A stretch of DNA of 33,175 bases. Origin: Nanobdellota archaeon. GTDB lineage: Archaea; Nanobdellota; Nanobdellia; Woesearchaeales; GW2011-AR9. The position numbers were made by a program, and so were the translations under genes. Each line of letters starts with the position of its first letter. Within the stretch, counting starts at the first letter, position 1. Location: assembly GCA_030695685.1 (NCBI GenBank), contig JAUYPT010000060.1:1-33175 (forward strand), read 5' to 3'. Below, one piece after another: positions 11,276 through 29,967 of the stretch. The notes beneath the pieces were generated by a model. That model was not told the origin of the DNA and did not search any database. It worked only from the letters and a program-made list of their open reading frames with translations.

Positions 11276-11414
11276 AAATTAAAAATATAGGGGTCTCTTT
11301 ATAAGAATTGTGGCTTAATTTTCCAGTCCGAACTTCTCTGCTTTGCTCTTTTAACAAAGAGAGCACAACAGGAATTAGACTCAATAATTAAAAATTAAAA
11401 AACAAAAAAAATAC

Positions 11415-11687
11415 TCACTTCCTCTTATTCACATTAAACACAACAGCTTCGCCGGTTCGAGGATCGTATTCTTTGGCTAAGCCTTCCGCAGCGACAACGC
11501 CGCCGACAAAGGCAGCAGCCTTATCCGTTAAATCCTCAAGGCATTTTCGCTTATAATCGTCAACCGCACGGTTGATAGCAGTAGTTCGTGCCAGATTAGC
11601 ATCCTCAATATTTCCCTTCACAGTATAAATATTGCCTTCACCGTAGCAGATGTTTTCTTCTTCCAGCGATTCCACGAGCTGTGACAT
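11415..11687 (-). CDS. 5'-truncated duplicate of the LPP20-like lipoprotein gene (no signal peptide; possibly a pseudogene or a cytoplasmic paralog)
   Basis: The 90-aa ORF is identical to the C-terminal 90 aa of the 12620..13012 product except for K/T at one position. The reading frame upstream hits a stop at 11724-11726, immediately after the end of the 232-aa ORF. Confidence 0.5.
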   Translation of the reverse strand: MSQLVESLEEENICYGEGNIYTVKGNIEDANLARTTAINRAVDDYKRKCLEDLTDKAAAFVGGVVAAEGLAKEYDPRTGEAVVFNVNKRK

Positions 11688-11706
11688 CGTTGTTCTGCCG
11701 TAATCA
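11415..11706. repeat. 292-bp direct repeat, copy A (98.6% identical to 12620..12911)
   Basis: Base-by-base comparison shows 4 mismatches in 292 bp (11445 A/T, 11583 A/G, 11617 T/G, 11622 A/G) and no indels. Weaker similarity continues about 25 nt to the left of both copies. Confidence 0.9.
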
Positions 11707-11730: not shown

Positions 11731-12429
11731 TTAAGGGGTGAGTGTTTTTGGTCCCAATAATCCTTTTAGTCTTGTGTAAACTTCTTGTAAAAAAGTCCTC
11801 GGAACTGAAGGAATTTCTATAGTTTGATCTTGATAAGGCAATAGAACTACTAGCATATCTCTACCTATTTTTTTACATATAACATCTCTTACTTCAGTTG
11901 CTTGTTTAGGGAGAGATGTATCACCTGCTAAATAATTAGCCAGAGATTGTGCTACATATATACCAACAATTTTAGTTTCAGGGCTGCCTCTAAGTACCAA
12001 CTCATTATGAATATATCTTTGGTGGTCTTTCTTTATTGTTAACATCTCTAATGGGGACATAATTTCTCCTTGATGCTCCTGAGCACATCTTGCTAATTCA
12101 TCTTTTTCCGTTGGGGTTCCAAGATCACCATATGAACAAACTCCTGCAGCAGAGATAACATCATCTGACGGGATTTGAAGAATAAATCCAATATTACCCA
12201 TAGTTGCAGTTCTATGAATCATCTGGCGCCCCCTAAGTTTTTCCCCTGCAGAATCCTCATCTAGGCGAGAGACGAGAGAACAAGAATAATAACGAGACTG
12301 ATCTTGCATAAGTGCAACTTTTTCTTCAAGATATTTTTGGCTATTCTTATCAATATCAAAAAGCCCATGAACTAGATAAATGAAATTTTCTCCATCTCTT
12401 TGCGGATCTGAAAGTATTTCCGAATACAT
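11731..12429 (-). CDS. Hypothetical protein (232 aa) bracketed by the 292-bp direct repeats
   Basis: Uninterrupted ORF that looks AT-richer than the flanking repeats. No confident family assignment. See the findings for a weak H..Y/F..NE[LIV] motif pattern. Confidence 0.6.
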   Translation of the reverse strand: MYSEILSDPQRDGENFIYLVHGLFDIDKNSQKYLEEKVALMQDQSRYYSCSLVSRLDEDSAGEKLRGRQMIHRTATMGNIGFILQIPSDDVISAAGVCSYGDLGTPTEKDELARCAQEHQGEIMSPLEMLTIKKDHQRYIHNELVLRGSPETKIVGIYVAQSLANYLAGDTSLPKQATEVRDVICKKIGRDMLVVLLPYQDQTIEIPSVPRTFLQEVYTRLKGLLGPKTLTP

Positions 12430-12619
12430 ATTAAAAATAAAACACTACCCATTTATAAATGTTCCTATAATTTACCACGGTTCAGTGATTACTAAGGATA
12501 AGCTCTGTAGAATTGCTTTTTAAATAATTTCCCTTCGGGACGTTGCACTAAAAATCAAGTCTTCCCTTTGGTCAGAGGAATATAACCGCGATTAAAAAAT
12601 AAAAAAAACAATAATCTAA

Positions 12620-12911
12620 TCACTTCCTCTTATTCACATTAAACACAACTGCTTCGCCGGTTCGAGGATCGTATTCTTTGGCTAAGCCTTCCGCAGCGAC
12701 AACGCCGCCGACAAAGGCAGCAGCCTTATCCGTTAAATCCTCAAGGCATTTTCGCTTATAATCGTCAACCGCACGGTTGATAGCAGTGGTTCGTGCCAGA
12801 TTAGCATCCTCAATATTTCCCGTCACGGTATAAATATTGCCTTCACCGTAGCAGATGTTTTCTTCTTCCAGCGATTCCACGAGCTGTGACATCGTTGTTC
12901 TGCCGTAATCA
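12620..12911. repeat. 292-bp direct repeat, copy B
   Basis: See copy A (11415..11706). Confidence 0.9.
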
Positions 12912-16763: not shown

Positions 16764-18692
16764 ATGAAATACAAGAATTTTACGCTGGATCCGTTTCAGG
16801 AACAGGCCATTGAAGCTATTGAATCACGCTCTTCAGTTGTTGTTTCTGCGCCTACCGGCAGCGGCAAGACGTTGATTGCTGATTATATCGTTGAAAAGCA
16901 CAAAAATGACCCGCAGAAAATAATTTACACTGCTCCTATTAAAGCGCTTTCCAATCAGAAATACAAAGATTTCTCTCACGAATATGGGGAAGAAAATGTC
17001 GGCCTGATGACAGGAGATATCGTCATTAATCCTACGGCTAAAATTATTGTCATGACCACTGAAATTTACCGTAATATGGTCATCAGCAAGGATGAAAGCA
17101 TTCAAAATATTGCCTACGTTATCTTTGATGAAATTCACTATATTAATGATATTGAACGGGGCTATGTCTGGGAAGAATCGATCATTTACAGCCCGGAAAG
17201 CATCCGTTTTCTCTGCCTTTCGGCAACAATCCCCAATGCCGATGAATTCAGCAGCTGGATTCAGGCAATCAAAAAACATCCTGTCAAGACAATTGTATCA
17301 AGCTATCGCAATGTACCATTAGAACATGCTTTTTACGATCAGGAATTAGGGATAACAACATTAAAAGAAATTAAGTCTGCCCAGCAAGTGCCGCAGTACC
17401 GCGATGTTTTTCCGCGGCAGGGAAAAAAACAAAAAAGAACATTCCCCCAGCCGAGCCATCTTGATCTGATCAAAGAGCTGGGAGCAGAAAAACTGCCCTG
17501 CCTCTATTTCAGCTTTTCCCGAAAATCCTGCCAGATAAAAGCTCAGGAATTAGCGCGGCAGAATTTATTCCAGCGAAATCCAACCATCAGCCAGTTCTTT
17601 TCCACAACATTATCCCAGGCGCCAAGTGATGTTCAGAAGTTAAAATCAACATTAATGTTAAAAGAAACCCTGCCGCAAGGCATTGCCTTTCATCATGCTG
17701 GCCTGTTGCCGGTGATCAAGGAAGCAATTGAAGATCTTTTCGGCAAAGGTTTGATCAAGGTATTATATACGACGGAAACGTTTGCTGTCGGCATTAACAT
17801 GCCGGCAAAGACAGTCTGTTTCGACAGCTTGCGGAAATATGACGGCTTTAATTTCCGCTATTTGAATACGAAGGAATATTTTCAAATTGCCGGCAGGGCA
17901 GGAAGGAGAGGCATCGATACAGTTGGATATGTTGTCAGCGTTATTTTTCGGCCGACGTTTAGGTATGAAGAGATCAAAAGAATCACGACAAAAGATATCG
18001 AGCCGATAAAATCGCAATTTAAACTGTCTATCAATACGGTGCTTAATCTTATCAATCAGCACACGCCGGCAGAAATTGAGCAAATTCTGCGTTTAAGCTT
18101 TTTCTCGTATCAGAAATTCGGCAAAGATTATGCCAAAATCCCGACCAATGTTCTTCTTGCCCGCTACAGCAGCATTATCCGCAAGCTTACCAAGTATGAC
18201 TATGTTCAGGGCAATACGGTAACTGCAAAAGGCGTTTTCTCATCGAAAATCTTTGCTGATGAAATCAGCATTGGTGAAATCTTTGCCACTGATTTTGTCC
18301 ATCAGCTTGATGAATACCAGATACTGCTGCTGTTAGCAGCGCTGATCTATGAAAAAAGAGAAATGAACAAATTTACCCAGGAACATAAAAATGACCAGCT
18401 CAATAAGCTGAAAGCACTGCTTTCCCGGAATGACTACCTCAGCAAAGAAAAAAAATTCCTTGCCCTGCCGGAGATGACGACATTGATGTTCCCGATCTAT
18501 CATGGCAAAAGTTTCTTTGACTTATTGAGCAGCACGACATTATTGGAAGGCGATCTAATCCGTTTCTTCCTGCAGATTAAAGACAGGATCGGCCAGATTA
18601 AAAAGGCAACAGTGGATTATAAAGTAACCCAGAAGATGATCAACTGCCAGGGAATTATTGATAAAGCGTTAGAAGGAATTTATGTGGTCTAA
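16764..18692 (+). CDS. Ski2-like / HelY-like SF2 RNA helicase
   Basis: Motif I SAPTGSGKT, motif II FDEIH, motif III SAT, motif VI IAGRAGRRG, plus a C-terminal helical domain as in Ski2/Mtr4-type helicases. Confidence 0.85.
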   Translation: MKYKNFTLDPFQEQAIEAIESRSSVVVSAPTGSGKTLIADYIVEKHKNDPQKIIYTAPIKALSNQKYKDFSHEYGEENVGLMTGDIVINPTAKIIVMTTEIYRNMVISKDESIQNIAYVIFDEIHYINDIERGYVWEESIIYSPESIRFLCLSATIPNADEFSSWIQAIKKHPVKTIVSSYRNVPLEHAFYDQELGITTLKEIKSAQQVPQYRDVFPRQGKKQKRTFPQPSHLDLIKELGAEKLPCLYFSFSRKSCQIKAQELARQNLFQRNPTISQFFSTTLSQAPSDVQKLKSTLMLKETLPQGIAFHHAGLLPVIKEAIEDLFGKGLIKVLYTTETFAVGINMPAKTVCFDSLRKYDGFNFRYLNTKEYFQIAGRAGRRGIDTVGYVVSVIFRPTFRYEEIKRITTKDIEPIKSQFKLSINTVLNLINQHTPAEIEQILRLSFFSYQKFGKDYAKIPTNVLLARYSSIIRKLTKYDYVQGNTVTAKGVFSSKIFADEISIGEIFATDFVHQLDEYQILLLLAALIYEKREMNKFTQEHKNDQLNKLKALLSRNDYLSKEKKFLALPEMTTLMFPIYHGKSFFDLLSSTTLLEGDLIRFFLQIKDRIGQIKKATVDYKVTQKMINCQGIIDKALEGIYVV

Positions 18693-18694
18693 AT

Positions 18695-21600
18695 TCATTG
18701 CTTATTAAAATCATCAAGATATTCTTTAAAAAAGACATTAAATCTCTTATCATTATTCAATTTTTTCCTCAGCTTACTGAATGCTTTCAATTCAATCTGA
18801 CGGATGCGCTCTCGAGTTACCCCAAACTTAAGGGCAATCTCTTCCAGTGTTTCTTCATTCTGATGATAAAGGCCAAGGCGGTGGACAAGAGTATAATGTT
18901 CCTTGTCATTTAAATGCGTTAAGAAAGGAGTTAACATGGTATAAAATTCCTGGTACTCTAAAGAACCATAAATCCCTGCTTCAGCAGTATTATCTTTGAC
19001 AAACTCACCTAATGTTCCGTCATCAGATCCTGGAAGAGGATGATCAAAAGTGTTATATACTTCAGATTGACGGACAAGTTCCTTTGCTCTTCCAACATCA
19101 TTAGAAGTAAGATGTCGATGTTCTATATAATCAGTATTAACAAGTTCTGCTATCTGCCCATCCGTCGGCTCAGTGCCATGCTGCTGTAAAAATTTCTGCT
19201 GCACCCATCGAATTTTCTTTTCAGTTTCAAAAAGATGAACCGGCCGCCGGACAGTTGGGCCTTTATTAGCGATTGCTCTCATCATTCCCTGCCGTATCCA
19301 CCACGTTGCATAGGTCGAAAATTTAAAACCCCGGTCAGGATCAAATTTTGTCGCTGCCTTCATCATGCCGATGTTTCCTTCCTGAATTAAATCATCCATA
19401 GAAAGATGATTTTGTGGATATCGTTTCGCAACGCTTACTACTAAGCGCAGGTTTGCCTGGCACATTTTTTGTACTGCTTCTTTTCCTTGGTTAATAACCG
19501 GCCATAATTCCTGTTTTTGTGCTTCCGACAGAGGTAGAAAAGCTGCTACTGTCCGCTGATATTTTACATACGCAAGATGGTTTTTTTCTGTAGGAGTACC
19601 ATCTCGTTTTAAATCATGTGTAGGAACATGTATCAACAGAACATCATCAATGCTTAAAGGAATATTAAAACAAATGTTAGAGTTATAGTTATCGTACTCT
19701 GTCTCTTTATTGGCGAATTTAGTCCCTTCACGCTTTGCTTTCTTTTTCAGCGGCTTTGCCATGACAGCAGCAACTTTCTGCTGCAGATCTGCCTCCGTAG
19801 CAACATCAAGATAATAATATCTGAAACTGCTGTGCTTTCGCGAAGGTAATGGAAATTTCTTTAAAAGATACTGCAATTGGCTGGGCTTTACATCGAGCAG
19901 CTGGCATAAATGTGTCGTGTTTAAGTACACTCCTTGATGAAGATCAATAGCAGCAGCGCCGTCAGCAGGAGTCAAGATTGCCTTTCCCGCACGATCAAAA
20001 TAATACACATTTGATTTAGAACTTTGTTTTGCTGTTTCTGAAGCATCATACAAAATAGTTACAGGCAAGAGAAGATCTTCCGGCGTGTCAGAAGCAAGAA
20101 CATCTTCCCAGTTTCGTACAGCGTTCTCTAACTCTTCCTGCACTTTAATCTGAGCATATGCTACAAAACTGCCGTGACAATCAAAAGAATCGATTGCTTT
20201 TGCTAACCCAATGTTGCCCTGCTTAACAAGATCATCAATGGTCAGCGTGTGAGCTGTTCTATCACTATTTTCAATAATTTCCAGGACTAATGGCAGATGT
20301 GCAGAATATATATCCAGCCAGGCTGTCCGTCCTGCTTGTATGGTGATACCAAGCTCAACTTCTTCTTCCCTGCTTAACAGCGGAACCTCTCCTAACTTGG
20401 AGAAATAATAACCCAAAGAGTCAAAATCTTCTCTAACGGAATGATTTTTCCTTTCTTTTTTTCCTGTCGAGGAACGAGATCTTTTTTGTGGATGAGCATC
20501 AGCAATATCAACATTAGTAGGATCATTATTTAATTCATTTTGAGTTATAAGCGCATCGACACTAAGCACTTTTTCAGTTCCTTCTTGTGGAGATGAATAT
20601 TCAGGCATAATCTTTTTTTTCTCTATTTTTTTATAAACTGCTTCCTTTTTTGGCGGTGTCCGTCGCCATTCATTTATTGCCGCAATAATAGTGTTATCAA
20701 TAAAATAGAATGCTGCTGATCCTTGTTTCTTTTTTGTCAGGTGGTGCCGCTGAATATAGGTATATATCTGTTGACGGCCCACGCCAAATATCTCCTGCAG
20801 CGAATTTATGCCCACAAATGCGCCTTCGGTGAGATTAAGGCCATTACTGCCGTCGCCAGGAATAGTTTTCATTTCTCCATCCTTGGTAAAGTAATAATCG
20901 CTGGAATTAAATGCTCTTGCCTGAATTTTATTGGATGGAATATCTTTCTCTGGAAGTATGGAAGAAGGTACATCAACAATCGATTCTATACCAGAAACTG
21001 TTTTTTTTTCTTCAAGTGAAACAACATCATTCAAGGCAGGAATTTCAGTGCCAGAGGAAGATAATTGTTTGACAGGTAAACGTAGAGAAGTCGATTTTAA
21101 ACGTGCATTTTTTTTCCGTAACAAGTCAAGCGGTGATTCTTCCGCACCTTTCAAATAATCCTTTGTTCGTTGGAATCGGCCAGGAGATTTTACATAGATT
21201 TCAAGTATTCTCGAAAACCAGCTTTTGGAAAGGCCTACTTTCTGTCCAGCTTCTTCCTGCGTTGACTGTTCAAAAAGATAATATTCAATACCACGGCGGT
21301 ACCTCTCTGGAACTGTCTGCAAATCAGCCTTGATGCATGCTAACACTTCTTCCATAAAAAAAGGATCATTATTTTTTGCGTAGCCTTCATGGAGTAATTC
21401 CATAAATGTCCTTTTTTCCTGCTTATTAATTTTTGAATCCAGCGAAACATGATGTGAAAACAGAGAATGAGCGTAAAAATCAGCAAACTCTTCTTCTTTG
21501 TAACCTGTATCAATCCAATACTGCTGATAGGCAACAAAATCAGGTTCAGCGTGATGCTCCTGCCAATATTTCTCAGCAAAATTTCGAAGAATTTTTACTT

Positions 21601-23347
21601 TCTTCCGAGAATCACGATCTAATATATCCTCTCCTCGCAAATAATCAATCATTGATCCCCTAATACGATAAAATGCAAATGTCTCAAATTTGGCGCCATT
21701 TGATTCTGCCGGATTGTATTTTTTCAGCGCTTCCAACAAACCAATGTTGCCAGAGCTTACTAATTCTTCAAAAGGAACCGGATTAAAATCTTTAGCAATA
21801 GCTTTAATCTCCTTCAGTACTTTACCAGCAGTCTTCCGTATTCTTGCTTGATACCGCACAACAAGTGTTTCTTTTATTGCAGGGTCATGAGAATGGTAAT
21901 AATGCTGTGCCAAATCAGTCAACGAGAGTCTCTTTTCAGAAACTGCATCAGCTTCTTGTAGAACGGCTGCCGTATTTTCTTTCACAGCCGCAGCAGCAAT
22001 AATTGTTTCTAAAGGTTCTGAATCATTACTGTTTTTGATTACATCCTCTTTTTGCGCTGCCGAGTAGATAGCTTCAACTGTTGCAGGTATTTCCGCCTGT
22101 ATTTTTTTTATTTTTTTAGATTTTTTAAGTTCTGTGAGAGTAATATCATCAACAAAATAAAGTTTCTTACGCCCGTCCATGCGGAAAGGGATATTTCGAT
22201 TTTTAGCACGCTCATACGCTGCGGCAGGGTTAATACCCAATAATGTACCAATCGCTTCCTTGTCAAGGTACCTCGAATCTGGGATGGTATCAACAACAGA
22301 ATCAATAATTTCATTAAAAGGACCAGAAAGCCCCGCATTTAAATGCAGGGATGAATGACTTTCTGTTCCTTTTATGCAAGAAGGACTTTGTCCTTCTGCA
22401 CAGAAAGACTTAGTCTTTCTTGTGTCACAAAGTGCGGGAGTTAAGAAAGCGTCTCTTTTCAAGCCTCGCTCTTTAGAGCGAGGTGAGACGCTTTCCCGCA
22501 CTTTTATGACTTTTTGGGGATCATCTTTCTCCACAAGAGGTTTTTTCACAATAGACTCCAGGAGAGAAACAGTCTGCTCTGCGATGACTTCTTTCTGCGT
22601 TTTGCTCAGTGTAAAAACACCGTCATTAAAAACAACATTGGGAAAAAAGTAAATATTGCCGAGATCAATCTTATACCAGCGCTCGCCCCAAAGCGATTTT
22701 GAGGGAATTTTCTCCCGAGCAAGAATTTTCTCCACGTCTTTCCTGCTTTTGCCGCTGAGCTGCTGCAATTGATGTGTGGTAAGATAAGCACCATCTTCGA
22801 CAGGAATGTACTGCCAGGAAATCTCTTTCATCCTAACGAAAGATCCAGGAGAAGGAGTTTTTGTCATAGCAACAAAACAGAGTTTATCGACAGCATCAAA
22901 GATATTGCTATTATCAACAATGTCTAAGGCAAATTCTCCATCAAGACAGAAATACATTTCTTCTCCAACGCGTACTGTTTTCGCTAATTCTTTCTTTGCT
23001 GCGTAGTCTAAGACGTCCTTGCCGCGGCCGGGAGAAAGATCACCCATACTGCAAATCTGATCGCTGGAGAAATAAAACTGGCCGTTGGAAAATTCATCAA
23101 TATTAATATAACGCCTTTTTCTGGGAATACCATCTCCATCCACAATTGTATAGGGCATTCCTGCCAGCAGATCTAAAGAATAAGCATCGCCTTCCGAGAG
23201 CATTCCCGTTGCCTGTGCTTCCTCAAAGGTTATATCCGCAGCACGAAACAGAACAGGAAGATCCTTGCTGCGAAGATGCCGCTCACGGGAAAGATACTGT
23301 ACAAGATCATCAAGAGGTACATAGAGTTCCGTTTCTTTTGCTGTCAA
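18695..23347 (-). CDS. Giant multi-domain protein: three sigma-70-family modules interleaved with excisionase-type winged-HTH units
   Basis: Single uninterrupted 1,550-aa frame. The ORF-track start is a TTG (23347) preceded by a GGGGGG run about 11 nt upstream. The first in-frame ATG is codon 49 (about 23203). Module details are in the sub-features and findings. Confidence 0.85.
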   Translation of the reverse strand: MTAKETELYVPLDDLVQYLSRERHLRSKDLPVLFRAADITFEEAQATGMLSEGDAYSLDLLAGMPYTIVDGDGIPRKRRYINIDEFSNGQFYFSSDQICSMGDLSPGRGKDVLDYAAKKELAKTVRVGEEMYFCLDGEFALDIVDNSNIFDAVDKLCFVAMTKTPSPGSFVRMKEISWQYIPVEDGAYLTTHQLQQLSGKSRKDVEKILAREKIPSKSLWGERWYKIDLGNIYFFPNVVFNDGVFTLSKTQKEVIAEQTVSLLESIVKKPLVEKDDPQKVIKVRESVSPRSKERGLKRDAFLTPALCDTRKTKSFCAEGQSPSCIKGTESHSSLHLNAGLSGPFNEIIDSVVDTIPDSRYLDKEAIGTLLGINPAAAYERAKNRNIPFRMDGRKKLYFVDDITLTELKKSKKIKKIQAEIPATVEAIYSAAQKEDVIKNSNDSEPLETIIAAAAVKENTAAVLQEADAVSEKRLSLTDLAQHYYHSHDPAIKETLVVRYQARIRKTAGKVLKEIKAIAKDFNPVPFEELVSSGNIGLLEALKKYNPAESNGAKFETFAFYRIRGSMIDYLRGEDILDRDSRKKVKILRNFAEKYWQEHHAEPDFVAYQQYWIDTGYKEEEFADFYAHSLFSHHVSLDSKINKQEKRTFMELLHEGYAKNNDPFFMEEVLACIKADLQTVPERYRRGIEYYLFEQSTQEEAGQKVGLSKSWFSRILEIYVKSPGRFQRTKDYLKGAEESPLDLLRKKNARLKSTSLRLPVKQLSSSGTEIPALNDVVSLEEKKTVSGIESIVDVPSSILPEKDIPSNKIQARAFNSSDYYFTKDGEMKTIPGDGSNGLNLTEGAFVGINSLQEIFGVGRQQIYTYIQRHHLTKKKQGSAAFYFIDNTIIAAINEWRRTPPKKEAVYKKIEKKKIMPEYSSPQEGTEKVLSVDALITQNELNNDPTNVDIADAHPQKRSRSSTGKKERKNHSVREDFDSLGYYFSKLGEVPLLSREEEVELGITIQAGRTAWLDIYSAHLPLVLEIIENSDRTAHTLTIDDLVKQGNIGLAKAIDSFDCHGSFVAYAQIKVQEELENAVRNWEDVLASDTPEDLLLPVTILYDASETAKQSSKSNVYYFDRAGKAILTPADGAAAIDLHQGVYLNTTHLCQLLDVKPSQLQYLLKKFPLPSRKHSSFRYYYLDVATEADLQQKVAAVMAKPLKKKAKREGTKFANKETEYDNYNSNICFNIPLSIDDVLLIHVPTHDLKRDGTPTEKNHLAYVKYQRTVAAFLPLSEAQKQELWPVINQGKEAVQKMCQANLRLVVSVAKRYPQNHLSMDDLIQEGNIGMMKAATKFDPDRGFKFSTYATWWIRQGMMRAIANKGPTVRRPVHLFETEKKIRWVQQKFLQQHGTEPTDGQIAELVNTDYIEHRHLTSNDVGRAKELVRQSEVYNTFDHPLPGSDDGTLGEFVKDNTAEAGIYGSLEYQEFYTMLTPFLTHLNDKEHYTLVHRLGLYHQNEETLEEIALKFGVTRERIRQIELKAFSKLRKKLNNDKRFNVFFKEYLDDFNKQ
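18758..19573 (-). other. Sigma module C: complete RpoD-like sigma-70 (regions 1.2, 2, 3, 4), aa ~1259-1530 of the giant ORF
   Basis: NLRLVVSVAKRYPQNHLSMDDLIQEGNIGMMKAATKFDPDRGFKFSTYATWWIRQGMMRAIANKGPTVRRPVHLFE covers regions 2.1-2.4/3.0 and is very close to the RpoD consensus NLRLVVSIAKKY...DLIQEGNIGLMKAVDKF....G.KFSTYATWWIRQAI.R.IA...RTIR.PVH. TLEEIALKFGVTRERIRQIELKAFSKLRKKL is the region 4.2 HTH. Confidence 0.9.
20108..20422 (-). other. Sigma module B: region 1.2 plus region 2 only, aa ~976-1080
   Basis: LGYYFSKLGEVPLLSREEEVELG is region-1.2-like. HTLTIDDLVKQGNIGLAKAIDSFDCHGSFVAYAQIKV is region-2.1/2.2-like. I can see no region 4 after it. Confidence 0.65.
21194..21922 (-). other. Sigma module A: FliA/sigma-28-like (regions 2-4), aa ~476-718
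   Basis: FEELVSSGNIGLLEALKKYNPAESNGAKFETFAFYRIRGSMIDYLR resembles the FliA-type ...F.TYA..RIRGAM.DELR. LQTVPERYRRGIEYYLFEQSTQEEAGQKVGLSKSWFSRILE is a region-4-like HTH. Confidence 0.75.
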
Positions 23348-23403: not shown

Positions 23404-23892
23404 CTAGAAAGGATCTTCAAACTTCATTTCCAGCGTGCCTTCGCATTTCTTGAGCAATCCATAAATGCGTGTCCTTTCCGCGAGATCAGCAGCGGTTTCT
23501 TTTCCTGTAATATCCTCGCCTCTGCTCATGCCGCTCAATCCTGTTCCGAGAATACTGCCATTATTATCTATTCTCCAGTAATGGTCAGAATTTTCCTGCT
23601 GGCGTATCCAATAGACAGGTTGAGAATTAGAGTGAATTCGTGACCCTATTTCTATGTCACTATAACCATCATACAAATCAATATATGTCCCCTGCACTTT
23701 GCCGCACTGTTGATATTTTCCTGCTTGGCATCGATTCCCTTCGACAAAAACAGGATACATTTTCATCTCGCAGCCATTGACATACTGAACATAGGTATCG
23801 TTATCACCACAGCCACTTCTCGTAGATTTGACTACAGCACATGTCGCTGCTATTCCTACTGCTAATGTCATTACAGTCCTTTTGAGATCCAT
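23404..23892 (-). CDS. Hypothetical secreted protein
   Basis: Signal-peptide-like N-terminus MDLKRTVMTLAVGIAATCAVV, with several Cys in the mature part. I prefer the Met at 23892, one nt after the thrS stop, over the overlapping 23907 start in the ORF track. Confidence 0.55.
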   Translation of the reverse strand: MDLKRTVMTLAVGIAATCAVVKSTRSGCGDNDTYVQYVNGCEMKMYPVFVEGNRCQAGKYQQCGKVQGTYIDLYDGYSDIEIGSRIHSNSQPVYWIRQQENSDHYWRIDNNGSILGTGLSGMSRGEDITGKETAADLAERTRIYGLLKKCEGTLEMKFEDPF

Positions 23893-23893
23893 A

Positions 23894-25831
23894 TTAACCC
23901 CCCACAAAACTAATTCGCTTGCTGACTAATTTTGGCAATGGCAGCGTATCAAACGGCCTGCCTTTTGTTTTATCATCAATGATTGCAACAAGGTCGGTAA
24001 AACTCATCTTTAATTCTTCATTTTTTTCCCGGTCACGAACAACGAAACTTTTGCTATCATTATTTTTAAATGAGTGCATTTCATTATCACCAATAACTAA
24101 CGTATACGGCACCCACTCTAATGCTGCAGTGCGGATGCGTTTTCCGACGCCCTCTAAACGGTCATCAATGTCAACCCGAATATTCAATTCATTCAATTTT
24201 GCCGCTACCTGCTGGCAGTATTCAAAATGATTGTCTAACGATACAGGAATTAACCGCACCTGTGTTGGCGCTAACCATAACGGTAATGACGGAACCTTTC
24301 CCACCTTTTCTTCCATTGCCGCTTTTTCCAATAGCGCATAGATGATTCTTTCCACCGCACCGGAAGGTGAAAGGTGCAGAATTAAAGGATGGCGTTTCTT
24401 GCCTTCCTTGTCAACATAATTAATATCATAGCGTTCCGCATTTTCCACGTCAATCTGATCTGTCGTCAAAGCAGAACATTTATCTAACGCATCGACAAAA
24501 TTCCATTCGTATTTCATGCTGTAATAAAAGAAGCGTTCATTCCACATTTCCACCAATGCAGGTTTGCCCCATTCTTTCACTAAACTAGTGACAAAATCCT
24601 TATTTTGCTCCCAGAAATCTTTGGTCATCCGAATGGCAAATTCAAGATCATCCGGCAATTTCAATCCGATGCCTTCCTGCACTTCCTTCGCTAATTGAAA
24701 GCGGCGTTTCATTTCGCTTTTCGCCTGCGCTTCATCAGCGCAAAAGGCATGACAGTCCGGCATCGTAAACGACCGCAGGCGGCGTAATCCTGTTAATTCC
24801 CCATGCTGTTCCGCGCGGAAACTGTAGCGGGTTAATTCGTACAGCCAGACTGGCAAGTGCTTATAGGAAACTTGTGCGTCGTGCATTTCCAGAAATTGGC
24901 CGAAACAGGCAGCAAATCGCAAAAATACTTTTTTGTTAGGCGTTTGAATGGTGTATTGCCGTGCCGGAAAACGATTAAGATAGCTCTTCAATGAAGGATG
25001 TTCAAAATCATACATGATCGGCGATTCAATTTCCATCCCGCCATATTCTTTTGTTTTCTGAGTCACCCAGCGTTCGATCAATCCTTTGATAAACCGCCCT
25101 TTGGGATAGTACCGTAAATTACCGGGATCAGAGCCGGGCTCATAATCAACCAGTTCCAATTTCCGCATCAAATGGACATGCGGCGGCTCTTCGTTGGCAA
25201 CCCTACTTTTGGCCATTTCGTACGCTGCCAGCTTTTGCAGTCCGGACTGCTCTGTAAATTCAAAACCGTTAAATTTTTTCTTCTCCTTGTTGTAGGTCAA
25301 GGGATTTAATTTTCCTTTTCCATCGAGAATAAACCACTGTGACACTAACGTTTTTTCGGCTGCGAGCGCTTTGCTTTCGTCGCTCCCGTGTTTATGTTTA
25401 CTTTCCGCATCATCAACGCTGAATTCCCTGCTTAATTCTGATAAGGGATGGCCTTTACAGGAAATCGTAAACGATTTATACCAGCCAAACGGCGCCCGGG
25501 TAACACTATATTTTTCCGCCAGTATTTTTTCAGCATCTTTCAGAACCTCTTCGGCGATCTTAGGAGCTGCGAGAGTAGAGCTTAAATGAGCATACGGATA
25601 CAGTACAAGTGTTTTGGCATTAACCTGCTGGGCAATATTTTTGATTTCCTGCACATATTTTTGAACGACAGCAGCAGTGTTTTTTTCATCCCTTTTTTCG
25701 ACAGCCGTAAACACAACCAGGCATTCCTTGACTTTGTGCACTCCTTTATCAACGCTGTCATCAGCCCCCTTAAAAGCCTTCTTTTGAGCTGCAAATTCAA
25801 TGAAATCAGCGTGGATGGTCAGTATTTTCAT
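23894..25831 (-). CDS. thrS: Threonyl-tRNA synthetase, archaeal type with N-terminal DTD-like editing domain
   Basis: The N-terminus [13 protein letters not shown]...[16 protein letters not shown]...[25 protein letters not shown] matches the archaeal ThrRS editing domain (compare Pyrococcus ...YPFAHLSSELA...[23 protein letters not shown], from memory). A class II catalytic core and a C-terminal anticodon-binding domain follow. Confidence 0.92.
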   Translation of the reverse strand: [645 protein letters not shown]

Positions 25832-26755: not shown

Positions 26756-27430
26756 ATGATTCTTGGAAAAAAAACAGCAAAAAAGATGAAAAAAGAAACA
26801 GTTGTTGTCTTCAGTGCTCATTCCGATGATTTTGTGATTGGAGCTGGCGGTACAATAGCCAATTATACCAAAGAAGGGAAGAAAGTTATTGTCATCGTCA
26901 TGTCCTATGGTGAAAAATCACATATCTGGCTGAAAAAGTCTATTGTCCAGAAAATGCGTTCCGCTGAAACGATGGAAGCCTGCAAATTATTGAAATGCAA
27001 AGCTCTTTTTTTTGACCTGCGTGAAGGAAATTTTCCGGAAGATTATGCTGCTACAAAAAGAGAACAGCAATTTCTCGACCTAATTCATTCTTTAAAACCA
27101 GTCAAAATATTTACGCACAGCAGTGAAGATCCTCATCCTGACCATCGTGCAACCCATGCCATAACATTAGACCTTTACGAAAAATTATCCTACAGGCCGG
27201 AAGTGTACATTTATTCCGTCTGGAATCCATTCTCATTTAAGACTATCTATCCGGCACTTTATAGTAATATTAGTACCACGTTGCGTCTAAAGCTGCAAGC
27301 GCTTAGAACGTTTCGCAGCCAGAAAATTCATCTTGCCTATCCTTTACTGTTGCTGCTGTTACGAGCGGTAAGAGATGGTTTTAAGATGAGAGGAGCAAGA
27401 TTCGCGGAGAAATTTTTCAGGATAAAATAA
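26756..27430 (+). CDS. PIG-L/LmbE-family N-acetylglucosaminyl deacetylase
   Basis: VVVFSAHSDDFVIGAGGTIA is a variant of the AHPDDE motif. SEDPHPDHRATH supplies the HPDH zinc ligands. Confidence 0.8.
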   Translation: MILGKKTAKKMKKETVVVFSAHSDDFVIGAGGTIANYTKEGKKVIVIVMSYGEKSHIWLKKSIVQKMRSAETMEACKLLKCKALFFDLREGNFPEDYAATKREQQFLDLIHSLKPVKIFTHSSEDPHPDHRATHAITLDLYEKLSYRPEVYIYSVWNPFSFKTIYPALYSNISTTLRLKLQALRTFRSQKIHLAYPLLLLLLRAVRDGFKMRGARFAEKFFRIK

Positions 27431-27459
27431 TTATCACAAACAGAAAAAATAAACTGCCT

Positions 27460-28620
27460 ATGAACCAAAAACCAAAACTGCTGCTGGTTGCAGATACGTA
27501 TTACCCTAAAGTAGATGGTACATTGCGGTTCATGGAAGAATTTATCAAACGCTCTTCCAAAATGTTTGATCTTACTTTGCTCGTGCCGCAGCTGGAACAA
27601 CAAAAACGTTCTCCCCGCAACTTTGCAATCACGTTTCTTGAGCCTTCAAGAATACTGCACATTTCCGGTTATCCATCCCTTAAATTATCGTTCCGCAATG
27701 TTAAAAACATTACCACAGCGATTAGAAATGCTGATCTTGTTTTCATTCAGGGGCCTGCTTTAATCAGTTATTTAAGTGTTTATTACGCACATAAATACCA
27801 TAAAAAAACAGTGTTTTATATGCACACAATCGCCTGGGAACTTTTGGAAAAATTCTTACCGCCATTACTCAACAAGATTCTGTTGAGAGTGATCAAACGG
27901 TTTTCGATCATGATGTATAACCTCTGTGATGAAATCTTTATCCCCTATCAGGATCTCAAAACACAGCTTGCCGCTGCCGGGGTAAAAACAACGATGACGG
28001 TTGCCCGATTAGGAGTTGATATTGAGAGGTTTTCCCCTACCAAAGATAAAATGGCAAGTAAAAAAAATATTGGCATTTCCCAGGACAAAAAAGTGATTGG
28101 CTATGTGGGAAGAATCTCCAAAGAAAAAAATATGGATGTTCTGCTTAATGCCTTCCTTAAACTGCCGCATCAGGAAGAGCTGCAGTTATTGATGGTTGGG
28201 GATGGACCTTCTGATCTCACGACAAAATTTAAAGCATTGCATAATTGCACCATTACCGGTTTCGTTTCCAATGTTCAGGATTATCTCAAAGCAATGGATA
28301 TTTTTGTCATGCCCAGTTTAACGGAAACAACATCATTGGCAACATTAGAAGCGATGTCCTGCGGTCTTCCTGTGATTGCATCCAAAGTAGGATTTATCAA
28401 ACACTATCTTATCAAAGACCATAATGGCCTTTTCTTTCCTCAAAGCAGTGCGCCGATTCTTGCACTGAAGATTGAAAAATTACTGCATGATGAAACAATA
28501 CGCCACAATTTAGGTAAAAATGCCCGGCGGATGGTTGCATATTCTTTCTCCTGGGAGAGATCAATCAACCGCATTAAAAGATTTCTGATGCATATTTATT
28601 TTCAGAAAGCAAAAAGGTAA
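27460..28620 (+). CDS. Glycosyltransferase family 4 (GT-B fold)
   Basis: 386 aa. The C-terminal signature FVMPSLTETTSLATLEAMSCGLPVIASKVG matches E(x7)E / EAM..G.PV. Confidence 0.85.
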   Translation: MNQKPKLLLVADTYYPKVDGTLRFMEEFIKRSSKMFDLTLLVPQLEQQKRSPRNFAITFLEPSRILHISGYPSLKLSFRNVKNITTAIRNADLVFIQGPALISYLSVYYAHKYHKKTVFYMHTIAWELLEKFLPPLLNKILLRVIKRFSIMMYNLCDEIFIPYQDLKTQLAAAGVKTTMTVARLGVDIERFSPTKDKMASKKNIGISQDKKVIGYVGRISKEKNMDVLLNAFLKLPHQEELQLLMVGDGPSDLTTKFKALHNCTITGFVSNVQDYLKAMDIFVMPSLTETTSLATLEAMSCGLPVIASKVGFIKHYLIKDHNGLFFPQSSAPILALKIEKLLHDETIRHNLGKNARRMVAYSFSWERSINRIKRFLMHIYFQKAKR

Positions 28621-29247: not shown

Positions 29248-29967
29248 ATGGCAAAACAAACAGTAGAAACATTGGTAGAAGGCGGTAAAGCAACCGCTGC
29301 ACCCCCGCTTGGCCCAGCACTTGGCCCGACAGGTGTTAATATTGGGCGTGTTGTCAGTGAAATTAATGCTAAAACTGCAGGCCTTAAAGGAATGCAGGTT
29401 CCTGTCAAAGTTATTGTTGATACTCAAAGTAAAGAATTTTTAATTGAAATTGGAACACCTCCCGCAGCAGCCTTGCTTAAAAAAGAGGCAGGCGTAGAGA
29501 AAGGCGCTGGAAACCCTCTTGCTGAGAAAGTTGCTGATCTACTGATTGAACAAATTATTAAAGTAGCTAAAACAAAAGAAGATTCACTTCTGGGAAAGGG
29601 CCTTAAAGCAAAGGTAAAAGAAATTGTTGGAACCTGCCAGTCGATAGGAATTCTGATTGAAGGCATGACAGCGCAGGAAGCATTGAAAGCAATCGATAAT
29701 GGACAATTTGATGAAAAAATCCGCCTCGGAAGAACAGAATTAACTGCAGAAGAAAAAGCACGGGTAGAAGAAGAGCGGAAGAAACTTCAGGAAGCTATGG
29801 GTGCACGGCGTGCTGAGTTTGAAGCCAAAGCTAAAGTTATTATGAAAGAATTGGAAGGCAAGGAAAACAAGAAAATCAGGACTGCGATGGCAGAAGCTGG
29901 CATCCCTGTTCCAATCATTAATGAATTGGCGCCTGTTGAGAAAGCTGAAGAAGCAACGAAAAAATAA
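29248..29967 (+). CDS. rpl11: 50S ribosomal protein uL11 (archaeal type) with a long charged C-terminal extension
   Basis: VEGGKATAAPPLGPALGPTGVNIGRVVSEINAKTAGLKGMQVPVKVIVD is the archaeal L11 N-domain, followed by the RNA-binding C-domain. About 80 extra Lys/Glu/Ala-rich residues follow residue ~160. Confidence 0.9.
   Translation: MAKQTVETLVEGGKATAAPPLGPALGPTGVNIGRVVSEINAKTAGLKGMQVPVKVIVDTQSKEFLIEIGTPPAAALLKKEAGVEKGAGNPLAEKVADLLIEQIIKVAKTKEDSLLGKGLKAKVKEIVGTCQSIGILIEGMTAQEALKAIDNGQFDEKIRLGRTELTAEEKARVEEERKKLQEAMGARRAEFEAKAKVIMKELEGKENKKIRTAMAEAGIPVPIINELAPVEKAEEATKK

Follow-up and report, generated by a model that had tools for sequence, protein, structure and literature searches.

An array of winged-helix units joined to three sigma-70-family modules in a giant gene of a Woesearchaeales archaeon

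The window analyzed here, 33,175 nucleotides from a Nanobdellota archaeon (Woesearchaeales; assembly GCA_030695685.1, contig JAUYPT010000060.1, positions 1 to 33,175), contains a giant open reading frame (ORF) whose 1550-residue product carries an array of winged helix-turn-helix (wHTH) units and three sigma-70-family modules on one chain. Four of these units, U1–U4, are true paralogous copies of one ~85-residue unit with an HTH_17-type winged-helix core, and they are interleaved with sigma modules A, B, and C in the order head–U1–U2–A–U3–B–U4–C (Table 1). Judging from the order of genes in related contigs, the protein is best understood as an array gene that has fused with a sigma gene, and comparisons within the chain and with its ortholog show that it was remodeled twice, by a duplication and by an insertion. 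We place somewhat better than even confidence in the explanation that takes these observations as a whole, in which a hairpin-wHTH array was fused to sigma modules, the chain was remodeled twice, and the units would anchor sigma on DNA.

In archaea, TBP, TFB, and TFE work with a eukaryote-like polymerase, and the role of sigma-70 in DPANN archaea is therefore unexplained. Sigma-70 genes (fam00359) are prevalent in Woesearchaeota according to the passage on them in Castelle et al. (2021, PMC8204110), in which mis-binning is ruled out, no anti-sigma factor is found, and the mechanism is said to be unknown. The window likewise has a sigma-70-family gene on a contig with archaeal L11 and threonyl-tRNA synthetase (ThrRS) genes, the comparison being with that passage. 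The passage reports presence only and describes no three-module chain, wHTH array, or pairing or fusion. The fold, the sigma family, and the occurrence of sigma-70 genes in DPANN archaea are already known; the family of hairpin-wHTH units, the coupling of that family to archaeal sigma genes, and the three-module fused architecture and its assembly are new as far as the searched literature shows.

Paralogous units and three sigma modules

When the giant protein was compared with itself by BLAST, residues 815–884 aligned with 1112–1181 at E = 1.3e-9, U1 with U4 at 3.6e-4, U1 with U3 at 2e-3, and U2 with U4 at 0.044. A hidden Markov model (HMM) built from U3 and U4 of the window protein and its ortholog scored 13.6 bits on U1 and 8.7 bits on U2, compared to a maximum of 6.4 bits in 2000 shuffles of the remaining ~1370 residues. 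Thus, the self-comparison and HMM scores above those of all shuffles establish that U1–U4 are homologous. A sequence-only reading of this DNA had proposed at least four reiterated segments of excisionase/MerR type interleaved with sigma modules. Every peptide that it quoted is present in the ORF translation, at positions off by at most 1–2 residues, and the range that it gave, 19778–22792, extends from where U4 ends to where U1 starts. The significant internal repeats that it expected were found, and the interleaving is borne out by the three sigma modules that Pfam identifies.

AlphaFold2 was run on U3 with a 21-sequence alignment and gave a model with a predicted local distance difference test score (pLDDT) of 92.1 and a predicted template modeling score of 0.80. 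The model begins with a beta-hairpin formed by a lead-in segment, followed by a short helix, a strand, two successive helices, a two-strand wing, and a C-terminal helix; its strand-helix-helix-wing core is the winged-helix fold anticipated in the sequence-only reading. Aligning the unit family with canonical HTH_17 repeats by hhalign returned a probability of 96.9% and an E-value of 1.6e-10, and the HTH_17 score of the whole protein, summed over its units, was 30.4 bits compared to a Pfam cutoff of 27. Foldseek placed the U3 model close to small proteins at low root-mean-square deviation (rmsd), including Pukovnik Xis, BldC, RacA, and pSK1 Par in the PDB and phage excisionases, PrtN, TorI, and MerR-like HTH proteins in a viral library; for these small proteins, rmsd was 2.4–3.2 Å over ~50 residues, the probability was mostly 0.9–0.99, and E-values were 0.03–0.4. 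The excisionase/MerR-type assignment therefore holds as an HTH_17-like winged helix by hhalign, profile search, AlphaFold, and Foldseek. A sequence search of the PDB with the unit profile returned only a chance match to HP0242, and a PHROGs search gave nothing useful.

The units share with HTH_17-type, excisionase, and small MerR-like proteins (lambda-type and Pukovnik Xis, AlpA, TorI, PrtN, BldC, RacA, and RdfS) the same ~50-residue strand-helix-helix-wing core, together with a Y-[LV]-[ST] start and an aromatic-x-[IL]-D wing end. They differ from those proteins in having a C-terminal helix with a lysine tail and, in U3, U4, and distant relatives, an extra N-terminal beta-hairpin. In contrast to free monomers of the HTH_17 type, they are joined covalently by long linkers and fused to sigma modules; no integrase or recombinase was found among the window's genes, and the integrase and att context of an excisionase is absent. 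They also fall outside the classical MerR families (PF13411/PF00376), with a score below the cutoff and only a 12-residue helix and basic tail after the wing. U1–U4 are basic, with isoelectric points (pI) of ~9, and the lysine-rich tails after U2, U3, and U4 carry net charges of +3 to +6. By analogy with the proteins listed above, the units probably bind DNA.

Pfam recognized three Sigma70_r2 stretches in the giant ORF, two of region 4, one of region 1.2 (residues 976–1007), and one of region 3, at whole-protein scores of 133.5 bits for Sigma70_r2, 51.8 for r4, 27.5 for r3, and 34.9 for r1_2, all above their cutoffs; the region 1.1 family had no match in the ORF. The modules were delimited by scanning pieces of the protein separately, and TIGR02937 (cutoff 42.9) scored 102.2 on module C, 68.3 on module A, and 30.6, below the cutoff, on module B. 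Module C aligns with Bacillus subtilis SigA across regions 2–4 (E = 1e-51) and retains intact the motifs of bacterial group 1/2 sigmas (SigA/RpoD/RpoS), namely DLIQEGNIG in region 2.2, which we take to be the core-binding motif, FSTYATWWIRQ for melting and −10 recognition, RRPVHLFET for the extended −10 element (shared as PVH..ET), and VTRERIRQIE for the −35 element. It differs from SigA, RpoD, and RpoS in lacking region 1.1, in standing behind 1250 residues that comprise units and two other sigma modules, and in its archaeal host, and it scored below the equivalog cutoffs (RpoD_Cterm, 225.7 versus 354; NF004208, 234 versus 555). Module A best matched FliA/WhiG (sigma-28) at 98.7 bits, below all cutoffs (TIGR02479, 91.4 versus 189.6), and the database proteins nearest to it are bacterial FliA at ~30% identity, but it lies inside a larger protein, and the ortholog lacks it. 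Module B is strongly acidic (net charge −13), lacks regions 3 and 4, and has IK in place of the WW of region 2.3. The estimate in the sequence-only reading of up to about nine DNA-binding domains on the chain is consequently tenable as a nominal count only, given what module B has lost.

The sigma protein MzaA of the MZA anti-phage system, which also has a long N-terminal extension, was among the best E-values in NCBIfam and PADLOC. As an assignment for this locus, MZA was rejected: the MzaA score was 234.3 compared to a cutoff of 800, the match covered only the sigma part (profile positions 447–706), and no partner genes were present, with PADLOC giving generic helicase matches or none on the five neighboring genes.

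Relatives of the array and assembly of the chain

Word-index protein searches found very few relatives, and the family was recovered by an exhaustive HMMER search in which the unit profile was run against 1.84 billion representative proteins and which returned 39 proteins at E ≤ 1e-3. With the window protein and its ortholog set aside, 26 of the 37 matches contain Pfam HTH_17. The best non-self matches (P0005, P0006, P0007, and P0016) have no sigma domain. P0006, an 819-residue protein consisting of a head and three units and matching nothing in Pfam, overlaps by ATGA the downstream gene for a 631-residue sigma-70 protein (contig L004, 4193–6088), and the multi-unit protein P0022 (416 residues) overlaps a 639-residue sigma-70 gene (contig L014, 7217–9136). 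The contig of P0022 also encodes an Lhr helicase 63% identical to that of the window. Because these related contigs have a multi-unit gene directly upstream of, and overlapping, a long sigma-70 gene, the window protein is best read, from this gene order, as the fusion of two such genes. P0010 is followed by a second unit-bearing protein, and the contigs of P0005 and P0016 are too short to show sigma adjacency. P0005 adjoins a gene for an L18e-type ribosomal protein (PF17135, 120 residues), which we take to be archaeal, and P0007 lies in the metagenome-assembled genome 'Candidatus Nanoarchaeia archaeon SMAG_U8134'. The units form a family of DPANN (Nanoarchaeia/Woesearchaeota-like) archaea.

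The sigma genes paired with P0006 and P0022 are related to each other over their full length, including an N-terminal extension of ~350 residues with helix-rich repeats; the unit profile had no match in this extension. Two tandem HTH_17 proteins (P0013 and P0015) resemble the window protein in having several excisionase-type wHTH domains per chain, but their domains are canonical HTH_17 repeats, tightly packed, with neither hairpin nor sigma modules. P0003 (1225 residues, contig L062, 10001–13678) was rejected as a relative: it is a bacterial sigma in a cluster of cell-wall and division genes, and its repeats are of a different type. It is another giant sigma with reiterated HTH modules, in which partial copies of region 4.2 can be seen by eye (e.g. 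EEVGKKFNVTRERTRQIEN) along with several region-4-like repeats in the C-terminal half.

The sole ortholog in 5.8 billion clusters (P0002, 1066 residues, Logan SRR22388335) lies between the same flanking genes as the window ORF and has the order head–U1–U3–B–U4–C. Compared to the window protein, it lacks residues ~276–785, a segment of ~510 residues comprising a palindromic repeat, U2, and module A. Between the window and the ortholog's locus (contig L001), identity is 87% for a ThrRS fragment, 70% for a ~162-residue protein, and 97% for the C-terminal end of a helicase. The giant protein is ~60% identical, with 70% for module C, 42–75% for the folded parts, and 16–29% for the spacers; from the identities of ThrRS and the helicase end, the sigma fusion evolves much faster than its neighbors.

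Within the window protein, residues 811–1090 and 1108–1365 are collinear from the lead-in through region 2 (Smith-Waterman score 184, compared to a null of 33 ± 5). This collinear alignment of the stretches leading into modules B and C shows one old cassette duplication, common to both orthologs. This tandem duplication of unit, spacer, region 1.2, and region 2 placed module B, which is truncated and acidic, in front of module C, which is complete, and a lineage-specific insertion then brought in the palindromic repeat, U2, and the FliA-like module A.

The palindromic element at the edge of the extra segment is ~185 nucleotides long and folds into four hairpins (minimum free energy −90.2 kcal/mol, z −10.2). 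About 58 nucleotides of it recur identically inside an unrelated epimerase-like gene (P0004, contig L002), and a 22-nucleotide core is present in 47 metagenome contigs, of which several carry record names that point to groundwater datasets. Among 41 fully flanked copies, 38 lie outside any long stop-free frame and for that reason look intergenic. An Rfam search with the element found no family. It looks like a repeat of this lineage of the miniature inverted-repeat transposable element (MITE) or repetitive extragenic palindrome (REP) type that coding sequence now and then takes up, in the manner known for the Rickettsia palindromic elements.

What the array may do

On the explanation we favor, the basic units and their tails would bind DNA at several sites, much as BldC, Xis, RacA, and RdfS do on repeated sites, and the DNA-bound units would tether or position the sigma modules on particular DNA. 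Several proteins of the HTH_17 type multimerize on repeated DNA sites, with BldC and RdfS binding head-to-tail (PMC5859096, PMC11963761). More speculatively, the acidic head (pI 4.7) and module B might mask basic parts of the chain, as region 1.1 does in bacterial sigmas.

Several observations weigh against this explanation. To our knowledge, archaea do not have the bacterial core polymerase. The window shows no enrichment of matches to sigma-70-type promoters (42 versus 52 ± 6.4 and 44 versus 41.5 ± 6.5). The linkers between units are long (50–300 residues), unlike the tight head-to-tail packing of BldC and Xis. Fused proteins number only two in the 5.8 billion clusters, a sigma gene is adjacent to the array gene in 2 of 5 informative neighborhoods, being absent beside P0007, P0010, and P0014, and contigs L004 and L005 are no more than putatively archaeal. 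As for the fold, the HTH_17 model scored 12.6–14.6 bits on isolated U2–U4, below its cutoff of 27, and had no match to isolated U1; the best single-unit MerR_1 score was 20.2 bits, for U4, compared to a cutoff of 21.6. Foldseek with the U3 model gave no match at E ≤ 1e-3, which is unsurprising for a core of 50 residues, and its best PDB E-values were to ArsR/SmtB-type repressors and TubR.

The units might instead be protein-protein or autoinhibitory modules that, for example, keep the sigma modules inactive and so stand in for region 1.1 or an anti-sigma factor, or that recruit transcription factors of the archaeal type. Contacts between proteins are commonly made by winged helices, and the head and module B are acidic, as region 1.1 is. 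The reported lack of anti-sigma factors in DPANN archaea, in the passage cited above (PMC8204110), would also fit. However, U1–U4 and the tails after U2, U3, and U4 are basic, and the nearest relatives of the units in both sequence and fold are DNA-binding excisionase and MerR-like proteins. We regard this alternative as unlikely. A more far-reaching proposal, to which we give slightly less weight still, is that a DPANN lineage took over sigma-70 modules by means of its own hairpin-wHTH units, the two being encoded at first by overlapping genes and later by a fused one, and that the product works with the archaeal polymerase or captures that of a bacterial partner. With the archaeal polymerase, sigma region 2 would sit on the homologous clamp coiled-coil.

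The sequence-only reading had suggested a different history, in which the protein grew by repeated duplication of a cassette made of a region-1.2-like motif, a wHTH, and a sigma module, the lead-ins being degenerate copies of region 1.2. In its favor, the cassettes of modules B and C are indeed collinear paralogs, residues 813–840 resemble 975–1002 (E = 0.03 in a tiny search space), and a change from YYF in the window protein to YYL in the ortholog is found in both lead-ins (residues 818–820 and 1115–1117) and in region 1.2 of module B (980–982). One such duplication is therefore real, spanning lead-in, wHTH, spacer, region 1.2, and region 2 of B and C. The remainder of the scheme fared poorly. 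Module A is not a copy of that cassette but FliA/WhiG-like, and it is an insertion or deletion relative to the ortholog, in which it is missing along with U2. Modules B and C each have, downstream of the unit, a region 1.2 of their own. As a whole, we consider repeated cassette duplication improbable.

Lead-ins precede the U3 and U4 cores at residues 816–836 and 1113–1133 with the pattern YY[FL]-x7-[WI][IV]P-x2-G, and region 1.2 of module B occupies residues 978–991; profiles detected no lead-in in U1 or U2. The two lead-ins had been described as near-identical, which overstates a match of 8 of 21 residues. A fuller pattern, YY[FL]-x7-[WI][IV]P-x2-G...[IL][DN][LF]-x2-G[AV]Y[LV], is joined to the wHTH in P0005, P0006, P0007, and P0016, so that the lead-in accompanies the wHTH where no sigma domain is present, and the family consensus does not have the K-x-GE that is shared with region 1.2. 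Sigma region 1.2 is helical, whereas the lead-in is predicted as a beta-hairpin with high confidence (pLDDT ~90 in the U3 model). Profile-profile comparison of lead-in and region 1.2 gave a probability of 3.9%, and an HMM score of −0.9 bits was reached by 111 of 2000 shuffles (5.5%). A variant in which the lead-in is region 1.2 of module C and U4 is an insert corresponding to the 'non-conserved region' was also rejected: module C has a region-1.2-like stretch of its own beside region 2. Taken together, the modeled hairpin, the sigma-less carriers, the poor profile match, and the separate stretch in module C indicate that the lead-in belongs to the unit and is not a sigma relic.

It is also conceivable, although we think it a distant prospect, that the protein or its fragments are effectors delivered to a bacterial partner or prey, where modules C and/or A would capture the bacterial core polymerase, as phage sigmas do, with the wHTH units guiding it to selected DNA. 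The bacterial −10 and −35 motifs and DLIQEGNIG are retained in module C, yet the organism is archaeal, and the lack of promoter enrichment in the window itself, noted above, is in keeping with this. However, neither a signal peptide nor any secretion gene was seen, the known hosts of DPANN episymbionts are themselves archaea (PMC8204110), and the idea is entirely inferential. Finally, we give very little credence to the 4.6-kb ORF being an assembly chimera or a decaying pseudogene: it comes from one metagenomic contig, contains a repeat element, and diverges faster than its neighbors, but the order head–U1–U3–B–U4–C and the flanks recur in the independent sample SRR22388335, all 1550 codons are stop-free, including the 510 codons of the extra segment, and the folded units are conserved whereas the linkers are not.

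The occurrence of array and sigma as adjacent genes in relatives offers a first handle on the role of bacterial sigma factors in archaea. Units from a dedicated family, predicted to bind DNA, are genetically coupled to DPANN sigma genes, as an overlapping neighbor or as a fusion, and the sigma module keeps residues that in bacteria read promoters and contact the polymerase. The protein is under active remodeling, with a duplication, insertion of a second type of sigma, and absorption of a mobile repeat. The coupling makes the role of archaeal sigma testable: one question is what DNA is bound by the units, the other whether the sigma modules bind a polymerase and, if so, which one. A role with the archaeal polymerase or as an effector, if true, would amount to a new kind of transcription control that spans the divide between bacteria and archaea.

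Genomic context of the window

Table 1. Parts of the giant ORF and neighboring genes, in window coordinates; residue numbers (aa) refer to the ORF translation.
Feature	Position	Strand	Remarks
Giant ORF, 1550 aa, TTG start	18695..23347	-	array of wHTH units and three sigma-70-family modules on one chain
N-terminal head, aa 1-85, acidic	23093..23347	-	common to sigma-less array proteins P0005 and P0006
U0b, possible degenerate fifth unit, aa 86-140	22928..23092	-	marginal profile score
Unit U1, aa 166-240, wHTH core aa 186-233, basic	unit 22628..22852, core 22649-22792	-	
Palindromic repeat element, in-frame, aa ~278-345	22318..22503	-	5' edge of the segment missing in P0002
Unit U2, aa 346-412, wHTH core aa 359-407, then Lys-rich tail	unit 22112..22312, core 22127-22273	-	no recognizable lead-in
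Sigma module A, aa 471-725	21173..21937	-	divergent FliA/WhiG-like regions 2-4; absent from P0002
Unit U3 with beta-hairpin lead-in, aa 811-897, core aa 839-894, then Lys-rich tail	unit 20657..20917, core 20666-20833	-	
Sigma module B, aa 976-1090	20078..20422	-	regions 1.2 and 2 only; region 2.3 WW replaced by IK; net charge -13
Unit U4 with beta-hairpin lead-in, aa 1108-1194, core aa 1135-1189, then Lys-rich tail	unit 19766..20026, core 19781-19945	-	
Sigma module C, aa 1258-1550	18698..19576	-	complete group-1/2-like: 1.2-like, 2, 3, and 4
Hel308/Ski2-like helicase with DSHCT (NUC185) C-terminal domain	16764-18692	+	convergent with giant ORF; C-terminal end conserved in L001
~162-aa Cys-rich protein, N-terminal hydrophobic anchor, no family match	23404-23907	-	L001 counterpart at 466-954
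ThrRS, archaeal-type	23894-25831	-	directly upstream of the ~162-aa protein gene; same order in L001
Ribosomal protein L11, 239 aa, archaeal-type, C-terminal extension	29248..29967	+	

The N-terminal structure model was confident only in part (overall pLDDT 62.8). The head is predicted to fold as beta-helix-helix...beta-beta with an insert, at pLDDT 74–89 for residues 10–65, and a scan of the N-terminal domain against GTDB genomes found no relative. For a possible fifth unit, residues ~92–136, the profile score is marginal and the predicted topology is wHTH-like at pLDDT 42–70.

L11 of the window scored 206.6 bits with NF002232 (cutoff 162), which we take to be the archaeal-type model, and 105.8 with the bacterial L11 model, below the cutoff of 141.85. 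Its best PDB matches, at 135–178 bits, are chains deposited as 'L11P', presumably from archaeal ribosomes, compared to 95 bits for the best other L11 chain. Over 234 residues, extension included, it is 73% identical to L11 of SMAG_U8134 (contig L008, 10505–11254, 249 residues). ThrRS has the archaea-specific editing domain and scored 803 bits with the archaeal-type model. Judging from its genes, the contig is that of a tiny, symbiotic DPANN archaeon of the Nanoarchaeia/Woesearchaeota-like kind, a point that the sequence-only reading missed. An origin in a bacterial intracellular symbiont resembling Chlamydia or Legionella was rejected on the evidence of L11, ThrRS, the L18e-type gene beside P0005, and the match to SMAG_U8134. 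The C-terminal extension of L11 is ~80 residues long and conserved; archaeal-type L11 chains in the PDB have ~160 residues.

The gene for the ~162-residue protein overlaps the ThrRS gene by 14 nucleotides and ends 56 nucleotides ahead of the giant ORF, and because of this overlap and short gap the three genes may be co-transcribed. The DSHCT domain of the convergent helicase is known from eukaryotic Mtr4/Ski2. Farther away, a 300-nucleotide direct repeat (11390–11689 and 12595–12894, 96% identical) flanks an ORF of 232 residues (11731–12429, minus strand) that has no family in Pfam or NCBIfam; repeat and ORF may be a mobile or duplicated cassette. A PIG-L deacetylase gene adjoins one for a GT4 glycosyltransferase (26756–28620, plus strand), an arrangement that recalls the bacterial bshB-bshA pair of the bacillithiol/mycothiol type and would be unexpected in a DPANN archaeon.

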